64,000 nucleotides of DNA, from positions 416,057 through 480,056 of the forward strand of contig JAGTJU010000004.1 in NCBI GenBank assembly GCA_022184915.1. Reading direction: 5' to 3'. The position numbers and the translations under genes are program-made. The DNA is from Myxococcales bacterium. Lineage in GTDB: Bacteria > Myxococcota_A > Polyangia > Fen-1088. Position 1 is the first letter of the stretch, and the number at the start of each line of letters is the position of its first letter. Of this stretch, positions 33,991 through 46,505 are shown one piece after another. Below the pieces are notes generated by a model. The model was not told the origin of the DNA and did no database searches. It worked only from the letters and a program-made list of their open reading frames with translations.

Positions 33991-34635
33991 ATGATGACCG
34001 CACGCGCTCACGGCCGGGCAGAAGCGAAGGTGAAGAGCGCTGGTCTGCAACCAGTACCCGACGTTTACATATCGACGGACATCGAGACGGACGGGCCCAT
34101 CCCCGGGCCGTTTTCGATGTTGTCGTTTGCCTTCGTCGAGATTGGAACCTTCGATGGGGCGCGCCTCTGCCGACCGCAGACGCCGCGCACCTTCTATCGG
34201 GAGCTGCGGCCCATTTCTGATCGCTTCGAGAACGAGGCGTTGGCGGTAAACGGGCTGGACCGTGGCAGGCTGCTCCGTGAGGGAACGGATCCTTCCACCG
34301 CGATGGAGGAGGCGCGCCACTTCGTCTCCGAACTGGCCGGGGGAGGAACTCCTGTTTTGGTGGCGTATCCGCTCTCGTTCGATTGGAGCTTCCTCTACTG
34401 GTACTTCGTGAGTTTTGGGGGCAGGTCGCCGTTCAACCATTCCCGGTGCTTCGACTTGAAGACGGCCGTGGCTGTAAAGGGGCGGCGCACGATCCTACGC
34501 GCGGGGCGGGATCAGCTGCCGGCTTCGCTGCAGAGTCGGATGAGTCACACGCACCACGCGTTGGACGATGCGATGGAGCAGGCCGATATTTTCGCACGCG
34601 TTTTCGATTGGGACGGTGCAGATGACGACGAATGA
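33991..34635 (+). CDS. DEDDh-type 3'-5' exonuclease (DnaQ/RNase T-like) of unknown role
   Basis: 214 aa. Exo I ISTDIETDG, Exo II YPLSFDWSFL, Exo III HHALDDAMEQ. Its 3' end overlaps the next gene by 14 nt. Confidence 0.65.
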   Translation: MMTARAHGRAEAKVKSAGLQPVPDVYISTDIETDGPIPGPFSMLSFAFVEIGTFDGARLCRPQTPRTFYRELRPISDRFENEALAVNGLDRGRLLREGTDPSTAMEEARHFVSELAGGGTPVLVAYPLSFDWSFLYWYFVSFGGRSPFNHSRCFDLKTAVAVKGRRTILRAGRDQLPASLQSRMSHTHHALDDAMEQADIFARVFDWDGADDDE

Positions 34636-35662
34636 CGAGTTCTTCACCGAACGAGCGAAGAATACGGCCGCGAGGGTGGCGGAGTGGTCGGCGGCATTCG
34701 AGGAGGAGCTTGGGGTCGACGGCAGGTCGGCGTTGTCCGACGGATGTGTGTACGCGGTGGGGTCTGCCGGAAGGGGCGAGCTTGGTGGGTCAAGTGACCT
34801 CGATGTCTTCATTGTGACGAACGGCGAACCATCCCGAGTGAATGAAGCGCTCGTGCAGGCCCCGCTCATAAGGATGATGCGGCGTTTCAAGTTGCCGCCC
34901 CCCTCTAACGACGCCACTTTCTTGAGACTGCATGGCGCCTCAGAGTTGGAGCACCGCCTCGGCGCCGTGAATGACGACTCGCCTCAGAACACGTTCACGG
35001 CAAGAATGCTCTTGCTTCTCGAGAGCAGGCCCTTTTACGGCCAGGAGGCCTATAAAGCCTTGCTCCGACGGGTTGTTCAAGCGTATTGGCGAAACGAACA
35101 AGCTCACGCGGATCATTACCTCCCCATGGTGCTGGTCAATGACATCGTTCGTTACTGGCGGGTCGTCCTGCTCAATTACGAAGCCAAGTTCGCCAGCAAA
35201 GAGCGTGAAGCCAAGACGTCAGGGGAGCTGGAGCAGGTGCGGCTGGCCAAGTGGCTGGCGAGCTACAAGCTCAGATTCGCCCGCTGCATGACGTGTTACT
35301 CGATGATCATCGTGCTGCTTTGGCAAACGAGAGAACAAGAGGGCAAGCTCCCTCACGTAAGTCAAGACATGATGCTCGAGCTGATCGGCCTGACACCCGT
35401 GCAGCGACTACAAGCCGTTCTGGCGGAAGCGACGGGCGCTGGTGCGGGTGGTGTTGTCACTCTCGTGGATGAATTGCTCGCGCTGTATGCCGGCTATCTC
35501 GCGTCGCGCACGATGCGGGATGACGAGTTGAAGGGCAAATTGCGCGACCGCTCGAACGGACCGTCTTTGTTCGAACGCGCAGACACGTTCGGCGACAAGA
35601 TGGCGCAATTGGTGCAGGAGCTGGGAAGGTCATCGCGATTGATCCGATATGTGGTGGTCTGA
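34622..35662 (+). CDS. Pol-beta-superfamily nucleotidyltransferase with helical C-terminal domain (CD-NTase/OAS/SMODS-like)
   Basis: 346 aa from MTTNDEFF. GSAGRGELGGSSDLDVFIV matches the GS...(D/E)hD nucleotidyltransferase signature. A ~280-aa helical domain follows. Confidence 0.6.
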   Translation: MTTNDEFFTERAKNTAARVAEWSAAFEEELGVDGRSALSDGCVYAVGSAGRGELGGSSDLDVFIVTNGEPSRVNEALVQAPLIRMMRRFKLPPPSNDATFLRLHGASELEHRLGAVNDDSPQNTFTARMLLLLESRPFYGQEAYKALLRRVVQAYWRNEQAHADHYLPMVLVNDIVRYWRVVLLNYEAKFASKEREAKTSGELEQVRLAKWLASYKLRFARCMTCYSMIIVLLWQTREQEGKLPHVSQDMMLELIGLTPVQRLQAVLAEATGAGAGGVVTLVDELLALYAGYLASRTMRDDELKGKLRDRSNGPSLFERADTFGDKMAQLVQELGRSSRLIRYVVV

Positions 35663-35693: not shown

Positions 35694-35972
35694 AAGCTCC
35701 GCGTTGTCGGCGCACTTTTCACGCTTCTGCTCGTGGCGAATGGCGGCTGCATAAAGGCGGCGCCATCGGCTCCTGTCGATGTGGCCCCGCCAGCGCTTCC
35801 ACCTACCGCCGCTGTTGTGCCTGCGGATGGTTTCCAAGATACTGCACCTCCGTCGGACTCTGTCCCGGCACACCCCATCTTCAACTCATGCGTGCTTCAT
35901 GCGGGGGACGCGTCTGTTCGTCGCCGACAGCCATTGTTGCCAGACGGCAGCCTTGGCCCAGAGACCACGCTA
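35694..35972 (+). pseudogene. 5' part of a Cys-rich lipoprotein gene interrupted by IS630 (the reading frame resumes at 37475..37822)
   Basis: MKLRVVGALFTLLLVANGGC signal/lipobox-like N-terminus. The frame reads into the IS terminal repeat and stops. After removing the IS plus one TA, the same frame continues for ~115 codons (…CIQVKRRVTPCDGF…). Confidence 0.4.
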
Positions 35973-37472
35973 GTTCAACGGATCCTAAATTCGTTCCGGG
36001 TTTGAGATCGTCCAGGGGAACTGGGAGACGACAATTTCGAGAAGGGCGTCGAGTTGTCCTCTGAAGAGCGTGGACTCCCAGCGCCCACGGTGGTCAGCAA
36101 AGTCGAGTCGCCACAGATGAACTGTATCGCGGCGAACCCTGAAGTGATTGAGGGGCTCGGAGTGCGGACCAGACTCCACGATGACGGCCGTTCCCCGCTT
36201 TCTTGCGCGCAGGCCATCGAATCCCCGCTTTGCGAGAAAGTCGAGGATCTGGTCGGGATGGTGGTCTTGGGCTTGAGGCGCAGGCATGTCGCGTCAGGCA
36301 GCACGGGCCTGACGCTTGGGATTCTGCCGGCTATCGCACCGCCATGTCCACCGGAAGGGATGCTTCTCGTGCCCATTCCAGTGCCGGATGAACTTGAGGA
36401 CTTGCGCCCGCTGATCCTTCAAGGAGGCAAAGCTGCCGTATCGCAGAATGCGGCGGTGCAGTATCGAGAACCAGATCTCTACTTGGTTCATCCAGGAGGC
36501 GTGCTTGGGCGTGTAGATGAACCGGAAGCGGCCCCCGTGCTGACGGTTGAATCGGGTCCACCGCTTGTCGCGGCCGTCGTAGTGGATATTGAGATTGTCC
36601 CAGACGACGTAGATTCGGCCCCGGGGGTGTTCCCGCGCGACCTGCTTGAGGAAGTCCAACAGTGCGTCGGCGCTTCGATGTGGGACGACCGATGCGACGA
36701 CATTGCCGTCACTGATATCGAAGGCAGCGAGAAGCGACTGGGTTCCGTGACGTTTGTACTCGAACTCAAACCGCACCGAAGCGTCTGTCGGGCTCAAGTG
36801 GGTAGGATGAAGTCTTTGCAACGCCTGCAAAGGCTTCTCGTCGATGCAGAGCACGACGCCGTCGTTGGGCGGGTTCAGATACAACTGGCAGATCTTCTTT
36901 GCCTTCGCAGAGAAGGCAGGATCTGGGCTGTGCAGCCACTGCTTTACGTTGTGAGGGCGCAGCTCGGCGAACCGCAGAATGCGACCGACTTCGCTGATGC
37001 TGATCTGCACGCCCGTGCGCCTCTTCAGTTCGTCGGCCAAAGCGCCATAGGACCAAACATCGCGAAACTTCGTCCTTTTCTCGTCGATACGCTCGCAGGC
37101 TATGCGCACGAGCTCGCAACGGACGTGGAGCGCAATGCGGGCGGGGCGCCCAGCGCGCGGCCGGTCATCGAGACAGCCAAGTGTCTGCTCGGCAGCGAAC
37201 CGCGCTTTCCATTTCCGAACGCACCGATCCGAGCACCCGAGCCGCCGTCCAATTTCGGGAGCGCTGACGCCACGCCGGGCCATCAAGAGCATTCGACACC
37301 GCTGTGCGACGGCGTTCGGGACCCTTGGTCTCTTGACCATCACTCGCAACTGACGGTGGACAGCTCGAGAAATCTTGAACTCTTCGGGCGCAGGGCCGCG
37401 GGCCATACTCTGAAGATCAACCCCGGCCCGCTTTTATTCCCAAACCCGGAACGAATTTCCGGCACGTTGAAC
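35973..37472. mobile_element. IS630-family insertion sequence with TA target duplication
   Basis: Imperfect ~35-bp terminal inverted repeats (GTTCAACGgatcctAAATTCGTTCCGGGTTTG / CAAACCCGGAACGAATTTccggcaCGTTGAAC). Flanking TA at 35971-2 and 37473-4. Single DDE transposase gene. Confidence 0.75.
36294..37406 (-). CDS. IS630-family DDE transposase
   Basis: 370 aa. N-terminal HTH (RMLLMARRGVSAPEIGRRLGCSDRCVRKW). C-terminal DDE domain (CIDEKP...WDNLNIH...HASWMNQVEIWF). Confidence 0.85.
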   Translation of the reverse strand: MARGPAPEEFKISRAVHRQLRVMVKRPRVPNAVAQRCRMLLMARRGVSAPEIGRRLGCSDRCVRKWKARFAAEQTLGCLDDRPRAGRPARIALHVRCELVRIACERIDEKRTKFRDVWSYGALADELKRRTGVQISISEVGRILRFAELRPHNVKQWLHSPDPAFSAKAKKICQLYLNPPNDGVVLCIDEKPLQALQRLHPTHLSPTDASVRFEFEYKRHGTQSLLAAFDISDGNVVASVVPHRSADALLDFLKQVAREHPRGRIYVVWDNLNIHYDGRDKRWTRFNRQHGGRFRFIYTPKHASWMNQVEIWFSILHRRILRYGSFASLKDQRAQVLKFIRHWNGHEKHPFRWTWRCDSRQNPKRQARAA

Positions 37473-38215
37473 TAGCGTCGTGTTCTTTCAGCGCTGAATG
37501 CATCCAGGTGAAGCGGAGAGTCACGCCGTGCGACGGCTTCGTCAGCATGAACTGCCACCATGAAAGCTGCGTTTGTTCTTTCGATCCGATGGCCCCGAAG
37601 GATGCGGCTACTTCCTTCTCGTTTCAAGCTGACGAAGCCTGTGCGTCCGGTGAGGTTGCTGAGCGCCTGTTTCGTCGTTGGTGTCTATCAGGAAGCGAAA
37701 AAGGAAGGTGGCCTTCACGTCAGGGGGCGGCTTCGTGGAAACTCCGAGGAGGAAGCGCTTCGGCCACATCACACGGCCATCGTGGAGGCCGCGCTTGGCG
37801 ACGGCCGGCTAAGAACCCTTGAGCAGCATGTGAAGCCGCTCGGCAAGAAGGTGCAGAGCCCCATCATCTATTGGCGTTCGGCGAAGATCCCACCTTGGAC
37901 GTTTCCCGAGACGATTCGTGACAACGCCGACCGCCGCACGCCCGCCATGGTCACCGAGGAAGTGGAGGTGCTCGTGACGGGAAGCATTTGGGCATACCGG
38001 CCGCGGGCGAAGTAGGGGGCGTGGTCCTCCTCGCGATGAGACCGCTAGACTTGACCTAATCCTTAAAGCCAATCTGCCGGTAGATCAAATCCGGACCGGC
38101 CTTTGCGAGGTAAGAACCGTGGGCGGTACAACGGTGTCATTGGAATGGCATCCACGCCGCAGCGGCCCCGAGTAGAGTCGAAGAGGTTCGCTTTGCCGAG
38201 TTCCCATCTCTTCCT

Positions 38216-40309
38216 ATGGTCACCATGCCCCCATCCCCCGCTTGGTTCTCCAGCACCCGCGCCACCTTCGTCGGCGCCGCCACTGAATCCGTGGTCGCCC
38301 AGCTCGCCTCGGGCGCCACGCGCGAAGGCTGGCTCGTAGAGCCCGAGCAGCACGACGAGTGGACCTCCAGCGTTGAAGCCCTCAAGCACGAGCTTGCGGC
38401 CGACGCCTGGCCCGCCGAGGGCCAGCAGGGTGGGGCGGCAAAGGCCGAGACCGTCGACACGCTGAGGGCGGCGTTGGCCCAAGCCGGCCTCGAGAGCTTT
38501 CGCCATGTGATTCTCGAGTACAACATGCGGCGCCGCGGTCTGCGTGTGGATTGCGTGCTGCTGGGGGAGGGCATCATCGCCGTGATCGAGTTCAAGCGCA
38601 GCCGCCCCAGCGCCGCCGATCGCGACCAGGTGATGAACTACGCTGTGAACCTGTGCGAGTTCCACGCCGAGACCCAGCGCGCGCTGGACCAAGGCGCCAT
38701 CCTGGTGCCCATCGTCGTGGCCACCCAGCAAGACACGCCGCTGCGCCTCGGCCAAGCGTTTCACGCCGCCCCGTGGAGCCGGGTGCTACAAGCGCCCCTC
38801 GAGGGCAGCGCCCGTGACCTTGCCCAAGCCTTGCGCCACGCCCTCGCGCTGCGGCCCAGTTCGGCCACCCCCGTGACCATCGACCGCGACACCTGGCTCG
38901 CTGCAAAGTTCTCGCCCTCATCAACCATCCTCGACGCCGCCATCTCGCTCTACGGCGCCCACGATGTTTCCGCCATCTCCGAACACGCCGCCCCCATCGA
39001 GGTGCTGGAGGCCTGTGCTACCGAAGCCATGGCCCAGATCGAAGACGCCCTGCAAACCGGCCAGCGGCGCATCGTGTTCGTCTCGGGCGCGCCCGGCGCA
39101 GGCAAGACCCTTGTGGGGCTCAAGCTGGCCTTCAGCGCCCAGCTTCGCGAGCAGTCTGTGTTCGTCACCGGCAACGCCCCCCTCGTCGATGTGCTTTGCC
39201 ACGCCCTGCAGGGCTCGTACAAGCGGGCCTCGCGTCGCGCTGGCATCAGCGGCTATGCCAAGGAGCAGGCCCGGCACGTGCTGGGCAACGCCACCTTCAA
39301 GATCGTCAAAGCCCACAACTACCTGGGCGACCGCGGCCGTCACCTCGACACCGCCCAAGAGCGCGTGGTCATCTTCGACGAAGCCCAGCGCACCTACGAG
39401 AAGGGCCGCACCGTGCTTCGTCAGCGCCTGGCCAACCACGAAGCCGACCTGATCCTCGAAAGCCTGGAACAATCGTTTCCTGGCGGCACCGTCGTGGTCG
39501 CCTTGCTGGGACACAACCAAGCCATCAACAGCGGCGAACGTGGCGCCGTGGCCTGGTTGGAAGCCGCCGCCCGTCGCCACTGGCAGTTCGCCATAGGCGA
39601 AGAAACTCTGGCCCTCACCGAACTGGCCTCCCACAGCCACCACGGAACCCATGCCCTTCGGCGCTCCTTGCAGCGCGGGCACCTGGCCCATTCTCTGCGC
39701 TACTACCGCAACGCCAGCGTCGAGAGGTGGGCCCACGCCGTGCTCGAAAACCAACCCACCACCGCCCGCAAGATTGCCGCCGAGCTCGATGCCCATGGCC
39801 ACACCGTGTATCTGACCCGCTCGCTGGCCCACGCCAAACGATGGGCCCAAGAACGGCGTGTGGGCGCCGAACGCGCCGGCGTCATCGCCTCGGCCCAGGG
39901 CCGGCGCCTATCCGCCGTGGGCATCCACGTGCAGTACAAGCCCGACATCTCCGACTGGATGCTCACACCCAGTGGCGACGTGCGGTCCTCGAACATGCTC
40001 GAGACCGCCCAGAACCAGTACCAGATCCAGGGGTTGGAACTGGACCACACCATCGTTTGCTGGGACCTGGACCTCCGCCGCAGCCCCCAGGGCTGGCAAG
40101 CGTTCAAGATGCAAGGCACCACCTGGAAATGCGACAAAGCCCAAGACATCGCCCGCAACGGCTACCTGGTGCTGCTGACCCGCGCCCGCAAGGGCATGAT
40201 CCTGGTTGTACCCGAAGGCGACGAGGGCGATCCCACGAGACCGCCCGGGGCGTACGGCGAGCTGGCGGCCTACCTGCGGGCTTGCGGGGCGGAGGAGGGC
40301 GGGCCATAG
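38216..40309 (+). CDS. NERD/PD-(D/E)xK nuclease-like N-domain fused to DUF2075-type SF1-helicase-like P-loop ATPase
   Basis: 697 aa. N-terminal FRHVILEYNM...RVDCVLLGEGIIAVIEFK (D...ExK). Walker A VSGAPGAGKT. Walker B VIFDEAQR. C-terminal GYLVLLTRARKGMILV (helicase motif VI-like). Confidence 0.7.
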   Translation: MVTMPPSPAWFSSTRATFVGAATESVVAQLASGATREGWLVEPEQHDEWTSSVEALKHELAADAWPAEGQQGGAAKAETVDTLRAALAQAGLESFRHVILEYNMRRRGLRVDCVLLGEGIIAVIEFKRSRPSAADRDQVMNYAVNLCEFHAETQRALDQGAILVPIVVATQQDTPLRLGQAFHAAPWSRVLQAPLEGSARDLAQALRHALALRPSSATPVTIDRDTWLAAKFSPSSTILDAAISLYGAHDVSAISEHAAPIEVLEACATEAMAQIEDALQTGQRRIVFVSGAPGAGKTLVGLKLAFSAQLREQSVFVTGNAPLVDVLCHALQGSYKRASRRAGISGYAKEQARHVLGNATFKIVKAHNYLGDRGRHLDTAQERVVIFDEAQRTYEKGRTVLRQRLANHEADLILESLEQSFPGGTVVVALLGHNQAINSGERGAVAWLEAAARRHWQFAIGEETLALTELASHSHHGTHALRRSLQRGHLAHSLRYYRNASVERWAHAVLENQPTTARKIAAELDAHGHTVYLTRSLAHAKRWAQERRVGAERAGVIASAQGRRLSAVGIHVQYKPDISDWMLTPSGDVRSSNMLETAQNQYQIQGLELDHTIVCWDLDLRRSPQGWQAFKMQGTTWKCDKAQDIARNGYLVLLTRARKGMILVVPEGDEGDPTRPPGAYGELAAYLRACGAEEGGP

Positions 40310-40583
40310 GCCCGTGCCGACGTCATCCCCAGTTGCCGCCGTCGATCGAGGACGGCGCGGCGTGATGGTTCTGGGCGGGAGACCTTCGGGTGCGATCACC
40401 AGCAACTTCCAGGCGACCCCAGCCGATATACTGGGTAAAGAAGGACCATGGCTGACGCCCTCGAGACATTCAACGCGCCCCCCGCCGGTGCCAAAGTTCC
40501 GACGGCGCGAGAGCTACGGGCTGCTGCAGCTCGAATGTACATGGAGCCGAGGAGCCATCGTGTACAGCTGATGAACCACATAG

Positions 40584-41390
40584 GTGAGCCCCTCGGAATT
40601 CCAGCGGGGGGCTGGATTAGTGGGGATTAGTGGTCAATCCCGCTTGATGCAGAACGGGGATGTGCGTGTGGTTTGGTTGCTGCGCCAGCTGTCCCGGTCT
40701 TCGACGGCGGAGGCAGCGTCCAGAAACCTCGCGCGGGCTGTGCAATTCGTAAACGCTGAGGTTATGTTAACCCTGATCACAGCCTCACGTGAATCGAGTT
40801 CGTCGATAGCCGCGACGTCTGACGAGCCAGTCAATACTTTCGCTCAAGGTGGCCTCGACTTTCTTGGGGGGGAGTATCACAGCCTAGGCCTTCCGCGCTC
40901 CGTCACAGCTTCCTGGGAATCACGGGCGCGCATACGAAATGCCGAGTCCGGGAACTTCATACAGCCCGCGAATATTCCGGCGAAGGATCAGGTGCTCGCG
41001 TACGCGGCGCAGATGAACGCCTCGTTCGACAGGAACTTTCTCAAATTCTTGAGAGCGATCTTGGGCGCTGCCGCGGGCGACGCTGTGACCAAGACGTCAC
41101 GCGCTGCCCTTCTGGTTTGGAAAGCTTTCGCGTTTCTTTCCCCTGCCGGAAAAGCATATGACCCCAAAAAAGGTCTCGACTCGCAGCTTAACATGCGGTT
41201 CGGAATCAGGACCTGCCTGGAGTACCTTCATGCGAAGGTGGATCAAGCTCTGCCTCTAGACCTCCTCCTTTCGCATCAGCCCTTGAACCGCAGCGAAAGG
41301 ATCCAGATCGCGAAGGCAAGAGTCGCGGAAGCTCTCTTCTTGGAGCGCGCACTTTCCACGACGCGCGACCTTCTGGAGCCATCCGTTTGA
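40584..41390 (+). CDS. hypothetical protein (lower-GC insert)
   Basis: 268-aa ORF. GC clearly below the neighbourhood. No family recognised. The start may be an internal Met. Confidence 0.35.
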   Translation: MSPSEFQRGAGLVGISGQSRLMQNGDVRVVWLLRQLSRSSTAEAASRNLARAVQFVNAEVMLTLITASRESSSSIAATSDEPVNTFAQGGLDFLGGEYHSLGLPRSVTASWESRARIRNAESGNFIQPANIPAKDQVLAYAAQMNASFDRNFLKFLRAILGAAAGDAVTKTSRAALLVWKAFAFLSPAGKAYDPKKGLDSQLNMRFGIRTCLEYLHAKVDQALPLDLLLSHQPLNRSERIQIAKARVAEALFLERALSTTRDLLEPSV

Positions 41391-41399
41391 GGGCGTAGC

Positions 41400-42386
41400 A
41401 TGATCGCTCGAATCGTGTGTGTGGCAACCCTCTTGGCGATCTCAGCCGCCCCGCGCAAGCCAGACGGGAACTGGGAAAGACTATTCGAGTTGCCAGAAGG
41501 CCAAGCTTGGCTCGAAACCGTTTGGGCGGACGGAAAATATGGCTGGGTGGCGGGAGGACGGGACGTCATCATTTTCAACCGCGCAAAAGAAACGGACGAG
41601 GTGAGCGTTTCTGCTATCCCAGGGCTTGCCGTCACCGCTCTCGGCGCCACATCGAGAGGCGTTTATGGAGTGGGATCTCACGGTGCTATCTGGAGGATTG
41701 ACCGCGACCGGGCGCACCTAGAGCATCAGGAGCGGCCCACCGAAAAGAGGAGGTTGCGAGACCCTGACCAGCTCCTTCAGGTGGGTGACGCGGTCGTCGC
41801 AGGTAAGGCGGGCGTGCTTGCCGTGGGTACGCGTGCTCTCTTCAGCTCGAGGCTTGGCGAGTGGGCGGCTGTCGCTGGCCCCACAGGCGGGCAGCTGGTA
41901 GAGGATCGGCTGTTCGGCCATTGGTTCTCCCGCCCCAAGGGGTGCGACTCCATCACGTGGCTCGTGTCCGCACGTTCTCACCGCGAGGGCGTGCTGGTTT
42001 GTGGGGACCGGCGGGTCTTTGGGGTAAGGGATCAGGATGTGAAGCCGCTTCCACCTCTTCCAAAGGGATGCGCAGAGGTCTGGCATGCCGCAGGCGGCGC
42101 CACATGGGGTACGACCATTCTGTGTGGCGGTAAAGGCTTGGTCTGGAAGCAAGATGGTCCTGCGGCTTGGTCGCAGGTGCCCGCGCCTGCGAACCTCGAC
42201 AATATCGCGGCCACCGAAAGCTGCATCTTCGCGGTGTCCAGAAGAAGCTTGTGGCGGCGCTGTGAGGTAAAGGTGTCGGCGGCGCCAGAGTCTGGGCCTG
42301 AAAGTCCCGTCGTTCAGCCTCCCAAGCTGGCGGCGCCAGAGCCACGTCCCACCCGCGATGCGCGCGGATGTTCCACTCGCCTCTAG
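41400..42386 (+). CDS. hypothetical secreted protein (signal peptide; possible beta-propeller)
   Basis: 328-aa ORF 10 nt after the previous gene. N-terminal MIARIVCVATLLAISAAP signal. Gly/Trp-rich repeats. Confidence 0.4.
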   Translation: MIARIVCVATLLAISAAPRKPDGNWERLFELPEGQAWLETVWADGKYGWVAGGRDVIIFNRAKETDEVSVSAIPGLAVTALGATSRGVYGVGSHGAIWRIDRDRAHLEHQERPTEKRRLRDPDQLLQVGDAVVAGKAGVLAVGTRALFSSRLGEWAAVAGPTGGQLVEDRLFGHWFSRPKGCDSITWLVSARSHREGVLVCGDRRVFGVRDQDVKPLPPLPKGCAEVWHAAGGATWGTTILCGGKGLVWKQDGPAAWSQVPAPANLDNIAATESCIFAVSRRSLWRRCEVKVSAAPESGPESPVVQPPKLAAPEPRPTRDARGCSTRL

Positions 42387-42903
42387 CAACGATGGGTCCT
42401 TGACCCGATGCCCCTTCAGCCAGATGCCGTGTCGGCGGTGCCCTTGCGAGTGCCGCTGCCATGAAGAAGGCCCCCGTCTACGCCTTGGTCTTAGATGTCT
42501 TCATCGATGCTAAGAACGCCTACTACGCGTTCTATATCTGTCCCGACTTCTGGGGCTGGACTGTGGAGGCCCAACAGCACGACCGACTGCGCAGCATCGA
42601 TCGCAGCGAGGCCGAGCTTCACGCAGGCAGCCCAAGAATGACCTCGTCGTGTGGGTAAAGCAGGCAGTCCCTGCTGGCTTCTTTTGCGGTACCCAGGCAA
42701 AGCACATGCTCGAGGCGTACGCAGAGATTTCCCTCTCGGGCCAACGCAGCACGCAGTATCTCGATTGCGCGAAGGCGAGGTTCGCCACCGAGGCCGACGG
42801 GTGGTTCGTCGCGTATTCCTTTAACACGCTTCGGAGCTTGCCGCGAAGCTCGACCTTCGCTCGAAGGGGGCTCTGTCGCACCGCCGTCTATTCAAGCGGC
42901 GGG

Positions 42904-43218
42904 TTATCGGAGGAGGCAACCCTCCGGAAAACAGCTTCGGCGAATACCGGCGTGAGTGCGACCGGGATGGTTGTCGCCAGCGAAGGCGAGGTCCAGGTCG
43001 CGGGTCGCTCGATGTGGCTTGCCCGTCCAGAGCGTGAACAGTGCCGCGCCCTTCAGCACGAACCGCTGCGCGTGCCGCGACGATGCGAGGCGGAACAGCA
43101 GGCGCTCGTTCGCGTAGCGCGTGAGCACGAGCTGAAAGTCCTTGCCCCGCTCCCGGGACAAGCGCGCGAGGCGTGCGCGCACCGACGCGCCGATGTCCTT
43201 GGGTGGGCTCTTCGTCAC
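42904..43218 (-). pseudogene. AbiEii/DUF1814 nucleotidyltransferase toxin, truncated after ~75 homologous residues
   Basis: GTG start overlaps the AbiEi stop (GTGA). KDIGASVRARLARLSRERGKDFQLVLTRYANERLLFRLASS...FVLKGAALFTLW matches the AbiEii N-terminus. Then it diverges and stops. A full-length family member is ~300 aa. Confidence 0.55.
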
Positions 43219-43823
43219 GCGAGCGCCTCGAGGTACGGCCGCATGAACGAATAGATGCGATCGGCGCGGGCGGCTTCGACGAGCGCATCGATGCTGCCCT
43301 TGTGCTTTCGCAGGTAGTCCTTGAGCGCCGCGAGCGCGACCTCGAGCCCGACGTGACGGCGGAAGCGAAAGCAGTCGGCGACGGTTTTCGCGGGGGTCGT
43401 GAGCTGCACCTTTACACCGTCGATGACGCGCGTCTCGACACCATGCTCCAGGGCCTTCTCGCTCGCGCGGACGACCTCGAGCGCCGGTGCGGTGACCTTG
43501 GGCATGCGTGCGTGCCGGTCGATGAGCACCCAGACAGCGTGTGGGACCTCAGTCGTCATGCCGTGGGCCTGCAGCGCACTGAGCAGGCAGATGACCGCGT
43601 GCGGGACGCGCTTGCTCACCTCGGCAAGCGAGCTCTGCTCGGTCACCGGCGCGTCGGCGAGCCGGTAGAGCCCGCGGTCGATCTGCTCGAGCAGGCCGCG
43701 GTCGCAGAGCCGCTTGAGGTAGGCCCGCGGGATGGCGGCGGCGTCGAGGTCCCGAGCGCGCACCGGCCCCTTTCGAGCGAGCCGGAGGAGGGTCGTGGTC
43801 TTGTTCGCGGCGCCGGGTGGCAT
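43215..43823 (-). CDS. AbiEi-family antitoxin/transcriptional regulator (type IV TA)
   Basis: Start chosen at MPPGAANK. N-terminal wHTH TTLLRLARKGPVRARDLDAAAIPRAYLKRLCDRGLLEQIDRGLY plus the AbiEi C-terminal domain. An identical second copy is at 51658..52314. Confidence 0.7.
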   Translation of the reverse strand: MPPGAANKTTTLLRLARKGPVRARDLDAAAIPRAYLKRLCDRGLLEQIDRGLYRLADAPVTEQSSLAEVSKRVPHAVICLLSALQAHGMTTEVPHAVWVLIDRHARMPKVTAPALEVVRASEKALEHGVETRVIDGVKVQLTTPAKTVADCFRFRRHVGLEVALAALKDYLRKHKGSIDALVEAARADRIYSFMRPYLEALA

Positions 43824-44176
43824 GATACGGAACGTCGTTCTCGAATATCGCGGGCAGACGATTCGTATCACACCATGCCGCCGCCTTCAAGCTTTTGCCC
43901 CCGCGCCTGCCCGTAAGGCTGGAATGGGCGGTGCGGCAAGAACCGCTGGAGATCCTTCGTGACCTGAGGCTGGATAGGCGAGGATGGCGAACGATGAGAA
44001 TTGGGCGGCGATATTTGTTGGGTGCTCTGTAAGCCCGTTACGCCCAGCCTGATGGTGAGCGAGGGACCGGACGGGTAGCCTCCATGGGGACGATCTGGGC
44101 GCGGGTCGCGTAGGGTCAGGGGCGACAACTCGGCCCCGAAACGGAGCCGCGAGGCTCGACAGAGGCCCAGGCCGGC

Positions 44177-45901
44177 TCAGCTGGCAGTGCGGGACTGTGC
44201 CGCCCAGGCGTCCGGGGTCAGCTCGCTGAGTCGGCGTACCGGCCAGCCGTTGCGGATCTTTCCGAGTACGTCGATGAGGTACGCGCGAGTGTCGATGCCC
44301 AGGTTCCGGCAGGACAAGATCAGCGTGTACACCGCCGCGAGTCGCTCGCCGCCTTTGACCGATCCAGTGAACAGATAGTTGCGGCGACCAACCGCGGGCC
44401 GCCGGATCTCGCGCTCGGTCTTGCCGTTGTCGATCTCGAAGTGACCATCAGAGAAGCATCGTTCGACGAAGACCTTCTGAGCAATGGCGTAGCGAACCGC
44501 CTTGGCAAACTTCGACGTCTTGCCAACGGCATCGCCGTAGCTCTCGATCTCCTTGTAAAGCTGCTCGAGAATGGGCAAGGACTTTTCGCGTCGGAGACAG
44601 AGGCGTTGGTCTGGCGACATGTCCTGCGCTTTTGCAGAGGCTTCGACCTCGTAGAGCGCCTTGATCAACGCCACTGGCCGCGCAGCACGTTTGTCGTTCA
44701 TCTCGAACGCCTCGTAAAAGCGGCGTCTCACGTGCATCATGCAGCCCAAGCGCCTGTCGTGTGGGATCAGAGGTCCTTCTCCACGTTCGGGATGCTCTAT
44801 GATGGCGCTGTAGCCTTTGTAGTCGTCCACCTGGATGAAGCCCGTCGCCGCGCCGATCCACGGCGCGATCTCCTCGTGGCTCCATGTCTCAGTGAACCGG
44901 AAACCAGTCAGTGGACCTGTGTTCGTGATGCACCAAAGATGCCCGCGCGACTTTTGGTCACCCTTCTTGTTGCCGAGGACCATGAGCCCGGTGTCGTCCA
45001 TCGCGACCACGTGGTCGTCGAGAATCTTTCCGACGGTTGCGTCGGCGATCGCGAGCAGAAGATCCGCAGCGAAGGCCCAGTAACGCAGGAGGGTATCGTA
45101 GGAAACCGGCCAGCCAAGGCGTTTGAAGCGATCGGCCTGCCGATTGATGGGCAGCGCATCTTCACCCTTGCCGTCGAGGAGCGCGGCGAGGAAGGAATTG
45201 CCGACTCGGACATCAGTGTTCATGTTTTCACGAGCAGCGGTAGCGATGTCACCCTGACAAGCTCGGCAGGCAAGTTTTTCCCGGCGCTCGACGTGAACCA
45301 CGAGCTTCTCCGGCACGTGCTCCACCGTCTCGTGCTCCACAGGCGCGATCGGCGTCATGGGCTTGCCACAGCACTTGCACTGCCGCTCCTCCTCCGCAAC
45401 GGGAATCTCCTTCACGATGCGCTCGAGACTGGGCGGCAGTGGCGTTCGTCCCTTGTGCGTTGGCCTTTTTCGCTTACCCTTTGAAGTTCCCTCGGCTCCC
45501 TGGATTTCATCGCAAGCGGGATCTTCGACAGCAGGAAGCTCTGGGTCATTCTTCGCATCTTCGGCGGGTACGCCGAGCGCGAGGCTCAACTGCTCCAAGT
45601 CGTCAGGCGTAAGCTTTTCGCTACGCCGTCCGTACAACAGGCGCACAAGATGTTTGATGTGCACCGCCTTCGTCCGCGCGTCTTCCTCGGCAGCATCACA
45701 TCGGTTTGCCATCTCAGCGTTCTGCTTCGCCATGTCGGCGTTCTGCTTCGCCATATCCATGGCCAAGTCCGCCAACCCAGCAACGTCCTTCGCCTCCGCG
45801 AGCGACTTGATGAATGCGACGAAGTCTCTGTTGGATGCCGTGGACATGAAAGAGGCGGTGGACTGCAAAGCCAGCAGTACCACCGCCGATCGACGTTGCA
45901 A
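44177..45901 (-). CDS. IS66-family transposase TnpC
   Basis: 574 aa. Zn-finger CKCCGK...CRAC, DDE core, typical IS66 TnpC length. Confidence 0.8.
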   Translation of the reverse strand: MQRRSAVVLLALQSTASFMSTASNRDFVAFIKSLAEAKDVAGLADLAMDMAKQNADMAKQNAEMANRCDAAEEDARTKAVHIKHLVRLLYGRRSEKLTPDDLEQLSLALGVPAEDAKNDPELPAVEDPACDEIQGAEGTSKGKRKRPTHKGRTPLPPSLERIVKEIPVAEEERQCKCCGKPMTPIAPVEHETVEHVPEKLVVHVERREKLACRACQGDIATAARENMNTDVRVGNSFLAALLDGKGEDALPINRQADRFKRLGWPVSYDTLLRYWAFAADLLLAIADATVGKILDDHVVAMDDTGLMVLGNKKGDQKSRGHLWCITNTGPLTGFRFTETWSHEEIAPWIGAATGFIQVDDYKGYSAIIEHPERGEGPLIPHDRRLGCMMHVRRRFYEAFEMNDKRAARPVALIKALYEVEASAKAQDMSPDQRLCLRREKSLPILEQLYKEIESYGDAVGKTSKFAKAVRYAIAQKVFVERCFSDGHFEIDNGKTEREIRRPAVGRRNYLFTGSVKGGERLAAVYTLILSCRNLGIDTRAYLIDVLGKIRNGWPVRRLSELTPDAWAAQSRTAS

Positions 45902-45929
45902 GCATTTTCAGCTTGCCTGTGCGCATTCT

Positions 45930-46295
45930 TCAGTCTGTTGTCTTCTTCTCTCTCCGATAGCGCCTCCGCCGCTTGATCTTGTCGGCGTCGACGCCCTCAA
46001 GAAGCATCGCCATCTCGGCGTTGTCGAGCTCGAGGTGACCTCCGGGATCCTCATCGAACACGTCCCGGAATGTTCCCGCTTCGAGGCGCTTCATCACCAG
46101 CCAGTACCCACTGCCGTCCCAAAACAGCATCCTGACCTGCGTGCGTCGCTTGTTGAAAAACGCAAACAGATCGCCGGACATCGATCCCCCCGGATCAAAG
46201 CCCTCCACCATCGCGGCGAGGCCGTCGAAGCTTCGACGCAGGTCCGCAGGCTTCGTGGCGATGAACATCCGCCGCGGCATCTTCGTCAACCACAT
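45930..46295 (-). CDS. IS66-family accessory protein TnpB (Orf2)
   Basis: 121 aa. DLRRSFDGLAAMVEG and LFWDGSGYWLVMKRLE motifs. Confidence 0.75.
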   Translation of the reverse strand: MWLTKMPRRMFIATKPADLRRSFDGLAAMVEGFDPGGSMSGDLFAFFNKRRTQVRMLFWDGSGYWLVMKRLEAGTFRDVFDEDPGGHLELDNAEMAMLLEGVDADKIKRRRRYRREKKTTD

Positions 46296-46505
46296 CGCGA
46301 CAAAGCTCGCAACGCAAGAACGAGGGTGGTTTCGTCGGTTCCCCCATCGACGACCACAGTGAGACCACTGGGGCGGAACGTGTCAACGATTTAGAGACAG
46401 AAGGTTTTGGAAATATGTGTAGCGCCGCTGCAGCACGGCTCTGGCAATCTGCCCACAACCGCACAGCGTCGCTGGTCATGTGAGGACCTACGACCGCTGT
46501 GCACA

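Follow-up and report, generated by a model that had tools for sequence, protein, structure and literature searches.

The window analysed here, a stretch of 64,000 nucleotides from contig JAGTJU010000004.1 of a Myxococcales bacterium, carries at positions 38216-40309 of the forward strand a gene that very likely encodes a functional single-polypeptide Nhi-like anti-phage nuclease-helicase, defence activity, DNA target and discrimination between phage and host DNA being ascribed to it by homology. Its fold, motifs, family membership, solo-gene organisation and mobile, island-like context were established in the present analysis. The original prediction, made from the letters of the window, had proposed a single-gene nuclease-helicase of Nhi-like architecture, and this was borne out by a full-length match to the PADLOC model PDC-S41, by membership in the verified Nhi-like family and by the lack of a partner in 72 loci of relatives. 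Nhi-like is a known system that already bears two names, and experiments have validated it in at least two relatives. The novelty is confined to the equation of PDC-S41 with Nhi-like, to a Myxococcota member of a large conserved environmental clade and to island turnover with a pseudogenised paralogue.

Gene and reading frame

An unbroken open reading frame (ORF) of 697 codons plus stop extends over 38216-40309 (+), in agreement with re-translation, and the database annotation uses an alternative ATG start at 38225, giving a product of 694 amino acids (aa). The window protein is 100% identical to this database protein ('MAG: Myxococcales bacterium, DUF2075 domain-containing protein', 694 aa, on an 806-kb contig), and the closest relative beyond the identical entry shares only 57% identity. 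Long ORFs occur frequently by chance in DNA of 68% GC and several overlap 38216-40309 in other frames; despite this the gene is evidently real, because an identical database protein exists and more than 800 further homologues were found in a protein database search. A sequence search of the PDB with the full protein gave nothing meaningful, the sole match being a spurious TetR-like one (E=0.01). Re-translation placed the strings RVDCVLL at residues 110-116, IEFK at 124-127, GAPGAGKT at 291-298, FDEAQR at 387-392 and LLTRARKG at 653-660. The features of the gene, all on the forward strand, are:

38216..40309 (+): intact Nhi-like (PADLOC PDC-S41) gene, 697 aa plus stop; from the ORF list, the PDC-S41 match and the 100% identity to a database protein
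38216..39001 (+): N-terminal domain, residues 1-262 (leader, nuclease core and linker); from the domain model, invariant columns and the N-domain profile
38429..38725 (+): predicted PD-(D/E)xK nuclease core, residues 72-170, alpha-beta-beta-beta-alpha-beta
38516..38596 (+): predicted catalytic residues E101 (38516-38518), D112 (38549-38551), E125 (38588-38590) and K127 (38594-38596); from invariance and alignment to the Nhi and Nhi-like motifs
38909..38989 (+): nuclease-to-helicase linker motif FSPSSTILDAAISLYGxHDVSAIxxHA, residues 232-258; near-invariant in the family
39065..40213 (+): DUF2075 / SLFN-g3 helicase, predicted superfamily 1B (SF1B) type, residues 284-666; Pfam PF09848, E=6e-52
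39086-39109 (+): Walker A, invariant in the alignment
39374-39391 (+): Walker B (FDEAQR), invariant in the alignment
40172-40195 (+): motif VI (LLTRARKG), invariant in the alignment
40214..40306 (+): C-terminal tail, residues 667-697, with invariant G668, D669, D672, T674, R675, Y680, L687, C690 and G691

Assignment to the Nhi-like family

Comparison of the protein with PADLOC-DB, a check that had been proposed together with the prediction, returned PDC-S41 at E=4.3e-161 over residues 9-694, which is the full length, and the other PADLOC matches (AbiO, DinG, Nhi and mad8) were weak and lay mainly around the P-loop/Walker A region. PDC stands for a set of 145 'phage defence candidates', none of them tested, which were derived from guilt-by-embedding in BREX, DISARM and type I restriction-modification systems, following the work on Hma-embedded candidates (HEC) in the same paper (10.1101/2024.01.29.577857). 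The Nhi-like system of Millman et al. was described as a predicted N-terminal nuclease with DUF2075 and with 'no sequence identity' to Nhi, and as system SG141 it was verified as defensive, the verified protein being one of 611 aa from Bacillus cereus FSL H8-0482 (10.1101/2022.05.11.491447). This sequence was compared over the 399 residues given in the Millman supplement, to which the window protein aligned along residues 98-455 with 27% identity (E=1e-24). The B. cereus megaplasmid orthologue WP_262314296 (611 aa) shares 88% identity with the verified sequence over the 399 aa, matches PDC-S41 along its whole length (E=9.6e-113) and was aligned by BLASTP with residues 98-666 of the window protein (E=4e-41, 26% identity). 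Because WP_262314296 links the verified protein, PDC-S41 and the window protein, PDC-S41 and Nhi-like are evidently one and the same family, and the window protein a member of it.

The family table of Millman et al. already includes Planctomycetes, Verrucomicrobia, Pseudomonas and one Myxococcales genome (10.1101/2022.05.11.491447). Nothing was found in a full-text literature search on the name 'PDC-S41' or in a literature search combining DUF2075, NERD and defense, and S41 is not named in the supplements of the PDC paper (10.1101/2024.01.29.577857). With PDC-S41 and Nhi-like both naming one family, the number of 'candidate' systems reported in surveys may come out too high.

N-terminal nuclease, leader and linker

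Conservation was assessed by aligning 35 homologues that share 54-59% identity with the query. The residues E101, D112, E125 and K127 are invariant in 35/35 of them. Residues 1-262 modelled alone gave a predicted local distance difference test score (pLDDT) of 83 and a predicted template modelling score (pTM) of 0.78, and the model shows a restriction-endonuclease core of alpha-beta-beta-beta-alpha-beta topology in which strand 2 carries D112 and strand 3 carries E125-x-K127. The stretch RVDCVLL...IEFK was set by hhalign against the EFDLL...IELK nuclease motif of the Nhi family, and in the alignment with the B. cereus Nhi-like protein it faces the motif RRPD...IECK. In structure comparison the predicted nuclease fold resembles McrC and Shedu SduA, and the N-terminal fold fits restriction-type nucleases better than SLFN11/12. 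From alignment and model, the N-terminal domain is predicted to be a PD-(D/E)xK nuclease with a complete and invariant catalytic set. Of the PD-(D/E)xK/NERD pattern first read into this domain, the PD-(D/E)xK fold with its invariant catalytic residues stood, and NERD did not stand as a Pfam assignment: NERD (PF08378) gave no match at E up to 10, and no Pfam family was matched by the N-terminal 275 aa. The NERD profile matched 4/17 homologues at E 0.03 or weaker, far under the gathering score, yet it was the most frequent family match.

The nuclease core is preceded by a conserved N-terminal leader of about 90 residues with invariant W10, F18, Q45, E48, W49 and S52. Within residues 61-77 (38396-38446) lies an Ala/Gly/Gln-rich insertion of about 13 residues, predicted to be disordered (pLDDT <50), which is private to the window protein among the 35 aligned homologues and is also unlike the Bacillus Nhi-like protein. 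The linker motif between nuclease and helicase corresponds in the alignments to F-x-PS...SPFN in Nhi and to EPSPSMLEAARSIL in Nhi-like, and its pLDDT is low in both the full-length and the domain model.

Helicase and C-terminal tail

The Pfam family SLFN-g3_helicase (formerly DUF2075, PF09848) was matched from profile position 1 to 353 of 354 (E=6e-52), and the Walker A, Walker B and motif VI LLTRARKG of the DUF2075 helicase, as originally read from the sequence, proved invariant and correctly placed. The key residues are K297 in Walker A, D388/E389 in Walker B and R656/R658 in motif VI. The full-length AlphaFold model had a mean pLDDT of 73, and the top structures in Foldseek were human SLFN11, RecD (within RecBCD), Upf1 and Dna2, which are SF1B/Upf1-like helicases. 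Profile match and model together indicate a C-terminal helicase of SF1B type whose ATPase motifs are complete and invariant. The window copy retains all columns that do not vary across the 35 homologues, the catalytic nuclease and helicase residues included.

Comparison with known systems

Two tested families of this architecture, Nhi-like and Nhi, are known from the literature. Nhi-like shares with the window protein the one-gene organisation and, in collinear order, the PD-(D/E)xK nuclease at the N-terminus, the conserved linker, the SF1 helicase of DUF2075 type and the conserved tail. The window protein exceeds the verified Bacillus Nhi-like protein in length by 86 aa; its leader and its stretch between helicase motifs I and II (residues 332-380) are longer, and its clade is large, Gram-negative and environmental, with >800 matches at 42-57% identity.

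The same layout, consisting of a D...ExK nuclease, an F-x-PS linker, GxGKT, DExQR and TRxRK, is found in Nhi (SERP2475; Bari et al. 2022) of Staphylococcus epidermidis. A profile comparison of the HHpred type against Nhi, also put forward with the prediction, was made with an alignment of SERP2475 and nine Nhi homologues from the supplement of the Nhi paper, and hhalign returned a probability of 94% (E=1.3e-7) over 230 collinear columns running from the nuclease core through the linker and Walker A to Walker B in helicase domain 1A, without reaching helicase domain 2A. Because this match is collinear from the nuclease core to Walker B, Nhi is evidently a remote homologue of the window protein and not a mere analogue. 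The window protein is nevertheless not a member of the Nhi sequence family, as the PADLOC Nhi model matched residues 274-315 only, which is the Walker A region (E=4.2e-5). The C-terminal glyoxalase/bleomycin-resistance domain of Nhi is missing from the window protein, and the conserved W/F/QxxEW leader of the family of the window protein is without equivalent in Nhi. Both are found in <1% of genomes, horizontally spread and island-associated.

The C-terminal helicase family (SLFN-g3_helicase, E=6e-52) is common to the window protein and the Schlafen group III proteins (SLFN5/11/13), and SLFN11 (7zel) is the best PDB fold match; membership in this group was rejected since the N-terminus has no Pfam match to the Schlafen core (AlbA_2) and its fold is of restriction type. 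Hachiman HamAB, AbpAB, Hna, Shedu and McrBC follow the same general logic of a restriction-fold nuclease under control of an NTPase, but they employ SF2 helicases or AAA+ GTPases, mostly on separate polypeptides, and PADLOC gave no match of the window protein to any of them. For Hachiman in particular, with its SF2 HamB and adjacent DUF1837 HamA, no PADLOC HamA or HamB match was obtained, the helicase is SF1B-like and there is no conserved neighbour.

Distribution and neighbours of relatives

In a set of 185,579 species genomes, with one genome per species, 91 relatives were found. The 80 retained loci are at 42-57% identity and span more than 10 phyla; they derive from Burkholderiales, Planctomycetota, Verrucomicrobiota, Myxococcota, Acidobacteriota, Gemmatimonas, Elusimicrobia, Lentisphaerae, Armatimonadetes, Turneriella, Cyanobium, Binatia and Smithella. 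The neighbours were clustered in 72 loci with five ORFs on each side, and no neighbour family occurred in more than seven of them, so that no partner gene accompanies it. The two ORFs downstream of the window gene, 40584-41390 and 41400-42386, have no Pfam or PADLOC match and are not kept beside homologues. The neighbour families that do recur are C5 cytosine methylases, Fic, zeta toxin, HNH and PLD nucleases, DUF3427 and pairs of NERD and UvrD, together with a ResIII/Helicase_C neighbour scored by PADLOC as a type IV methyl-directed restriction enzyme; these are families typical of defence islands. The bulk PADLOC scan of the neighbours provides counts per family.

A profile of the N-terminal domain retrieved 1398 clusters at 50% identity. 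The architecture is stable, because nearly all full-length members of these clusters measure about 610-700 aa and carry the domain N-terminally. Plasmid and phage collections yielded distant homologues only, on megaplasmids of Bacillus, on two plasmids of Persicobacter and on one contig of an uncultured phage. Non-mobilizable megaplasmids account for 43/47 of the plasmid matches, and the majority of homologues are chromosomal.

Genomic island and decayed paralogue

The housekeeping genes sucC and mdh end at 33.8 kb and the island starts directly after them, with a GC content of 0.62 at about 33.9-52.4 kb compared to 0.68 in the preceding 28 kb. Along the island follow an exonuclease/nucleotidyltransferase pair, IS630, the Nhi-like gene, the two familyless ORFs, an AbiEii fragment with AbiEi, IS66 with an rve integrase gene, the decayed Nhi-like copy and a second AbiEi. 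The location of the gene between an IS630 and an AbiE locus had been recognised beforehand and was confirmed, with IS630 at 35964-37481 upstream, ending 735 bp from the gene, and an AbiE remnant at 42904-43871 downstream. The features of the island are:

33991-34635 (+): DEDDh/RNase T-like exonuclease; PADLOC 'Effector Exonuclease', E=1.5e-35
34568-35662 (+): nucleotidyltransferase overlapping the exonuclease gene; PADLOC candidate PDC-M70A, E=1.3e-28
35964..37481 (-): IS630-family element (transposase 36294-37406); DDE_3 and HTH domains, 44-nt terminal inverted repeats
42904-43218 (-): AbiEii fragment, 104 aa; Pfam, PADLOC
43215-43871 (-): intact AbiEi; Pfam, PADLOC
44177-46295: IS66, transposase and orf2/TnpB_IS66 (orf2 at 45930-46295)
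46535-47611: rve integrase-core gene
50377..51479 (+): decayed second Nhi-like copy; direct repeats D2-D6, blastn identity 92.4%, tblastn frames
51658-52314 (-): second AbiEi; 97% DNA repeat

The decayed copy is situated 11.5 kb from the intact gene and is 92% identical in DNA to its positions 38915-39936. It covers residues 228-573 in three frames owing to two frameshifts, near 50475 and 50760; residues 574-673 are deleted (about 300 bp), residues 674-696 are kept and residues 1-227 with the nuclease domain are gone. AbiEi and its flank are likewise duplicated (43159-43940 and 51604-52384, 97% DNA identity), and with AbiEii cut to 104 aa in copy 1 and to about 60 nt in copy 2, both toxin genes are broken and both antitoxin/regulator genes intact. 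In copy 2 a gap of about 120 bp lies between the 3' end of the Nhi-like sequence and the AbiE repeat, and in copy 1 the two are separated by 2.8 kb of unrelated DNA (40345-43158, GC 0.62) that holds the two familyless ORFs. The window thus holds two copies of the convergent Nhi-like/AbiE arrangement in differing states of decay, and the 3-11% DNA divergence between them argues against an assembly artefact.

Three elements of insertion-sequence type, IS630, IS66 and the rve integrase gene, are contained within 12 kb. A tRNA-Asn of 93 nt called by ARAGORN at 46209-46301 (-) falls almost wholly inside IS66 orf2 and was discarded as a probable false positive, not an integration site. The exonuclease/nucleotidyltransferase pair at 33991-35662 may be another candidate defence system.

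Discussion

By analogy with characterised relatives the protein would load on invading phage DNA, along which the SF1B-type DUF2075 helicase/translocase would move, or which it would unwind, in an ATP-driven manner, and the metal-dependent PD-(D/E)xK nuclease (E101, D112, E125, K127) would nick or degrade this DNA so that phage DNA ceases to accumulate. Host DNA would be spared because the enzyme depends on some property of phage DNA, for which methylation of the phage type, replication intermediates and free ends are candidates, and the nuclease is perhaps auto-inhibited in the resting full-length enzyme. For Nhi it was reported that immunity requires both nuclease and helicase, that the N-terminal 230 residues alone are a Mg/Mn-dependent 3'-5' exonuclease and nickase, an activity nearly absent in the full-length protein (auto-inhibition), and that the protein is a dimer with a helicase unwinding from either overhang, phage DNA failing to accumulate and phage single-stranded DNA-binding protein (SSB) giving escape (10.1101/776245). 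Phages escape Nhi-like by loss of a phage DNA methylase (10.1101/2022.08.27.505566). The proteobacterial PsNhi-like gave >20-fold defence against 7/11 phages and, of 29 nuclease-NTPase operons, was one of the two with the broadest defence; when purified it degraded DNA of T7, SECphi17 and SPO1 in vitro and spared E. coli chromosomal and plasmid DNA (10.1101/2025.07.10.664194).

Several observations weigh against a functional anti-phage enzyme. Identity to the verified Bacillus member is 26-27% only, and the BLASTP alignment to the Bacillus protein starts at residue 98, leaving the leader unmatched. The enrichment for defence genes is modest, with about 9/133 nearest neighbours being restriction or modification genes as a raw count. 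No recognisable sigma-70 promoter and no terminator-like signal were found around the gene in a scan that is uninformative here, as Myxococcota promoter types are not covered, and the island is decaying, with AbiEii truncated and the paralogue a pseudogene, which leaves room for a recent loss of expression.

These last points would also suit an ORF that looks intact and is a recently silenced remnant without current function, which is nonetheless quite improbable. The truncated AbiEii neighbour, the frameshifted and deleted paralogue 11.5 kb away, the lack of a recognisable sigma-70 promoter and the IS630 735 bp upstream are all in its favour, but the ORF is full length and has kept all invariant columns and catalytic residues, the paralogue displays what decay looks like in this genome, and the promoter types of Myxococcota lie outside the scan. 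It is unlikely, too, that this Nhi-like member acts mainly in mobile-element conflict, against plasmids or integrative and conjugative elements (ICEs) or as cargo stabilising an element, or that it kills the cell by degrading host DNA in abortive infection. The gene is flanked by IS630, IS66 and the rve integrase gene, distant homologues reside on Bacillus megaplasmids, Persicobacter plasmids and one uncultured phage contig, and one Staphylococcus Nhi homologue is toxic upon induction; verified relatives, however, protect against phages with no culture collapse reported, PsNhi-like spared E. coli chromosomal and plasmid DNA in vitro, and the homologues are mostly chromosomal, 43/47 plasmid matches being on megaplasmids that are not mobilizable.

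Very improbable is a housekeeping helicase-nuclease of DNA repair or recombination in this myxobacterium, of the RecD, AddAB or Dna2-like kind. RecD and Dna2 are among the structural neighbours and the Walker A region has a weak, sub-threshold NCBIfam recD match, but no NCBIfam model reached its cut-off, all that was obtained being sub-threshold P-loop matches (recD 14.1 bits vs 310), and the gene is located in an IS-rich island of lower GC. Its relatives occur in just 91/185,579 species genomes, scattered and without common synteny, and the nearest is only 57% identical. The original prediction had named orthology to a syntenic housekeeping helicase as what would speak against it; the distribution is patchy and non-syntenic, and the rarity, the scatter over phyla and the flat identity across phyla therefore led to rejection of such a helicase.

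With a single-polypeptide Nhi-like defence enzyme as the preferred reading, the gene opens no new question, and the main value of the finding is in annotation. The current database label is 'DUF2075 domain-containing protein' and PADLOC would give the untested candidate PDC-S41; PDC-S41 matches in surveys may now be read as Nhi-like. The window offers a compact view of the turnover of a defence island, in which the gene is intact and its paralogue decayed, AbiE is broken and three insertion sequences are present. The Nhi-like family is hereby extended to Myxococcota, and its large, conserved environmental clade is suited to mechanistic work, for example on the discrimination between phage and host DNA.

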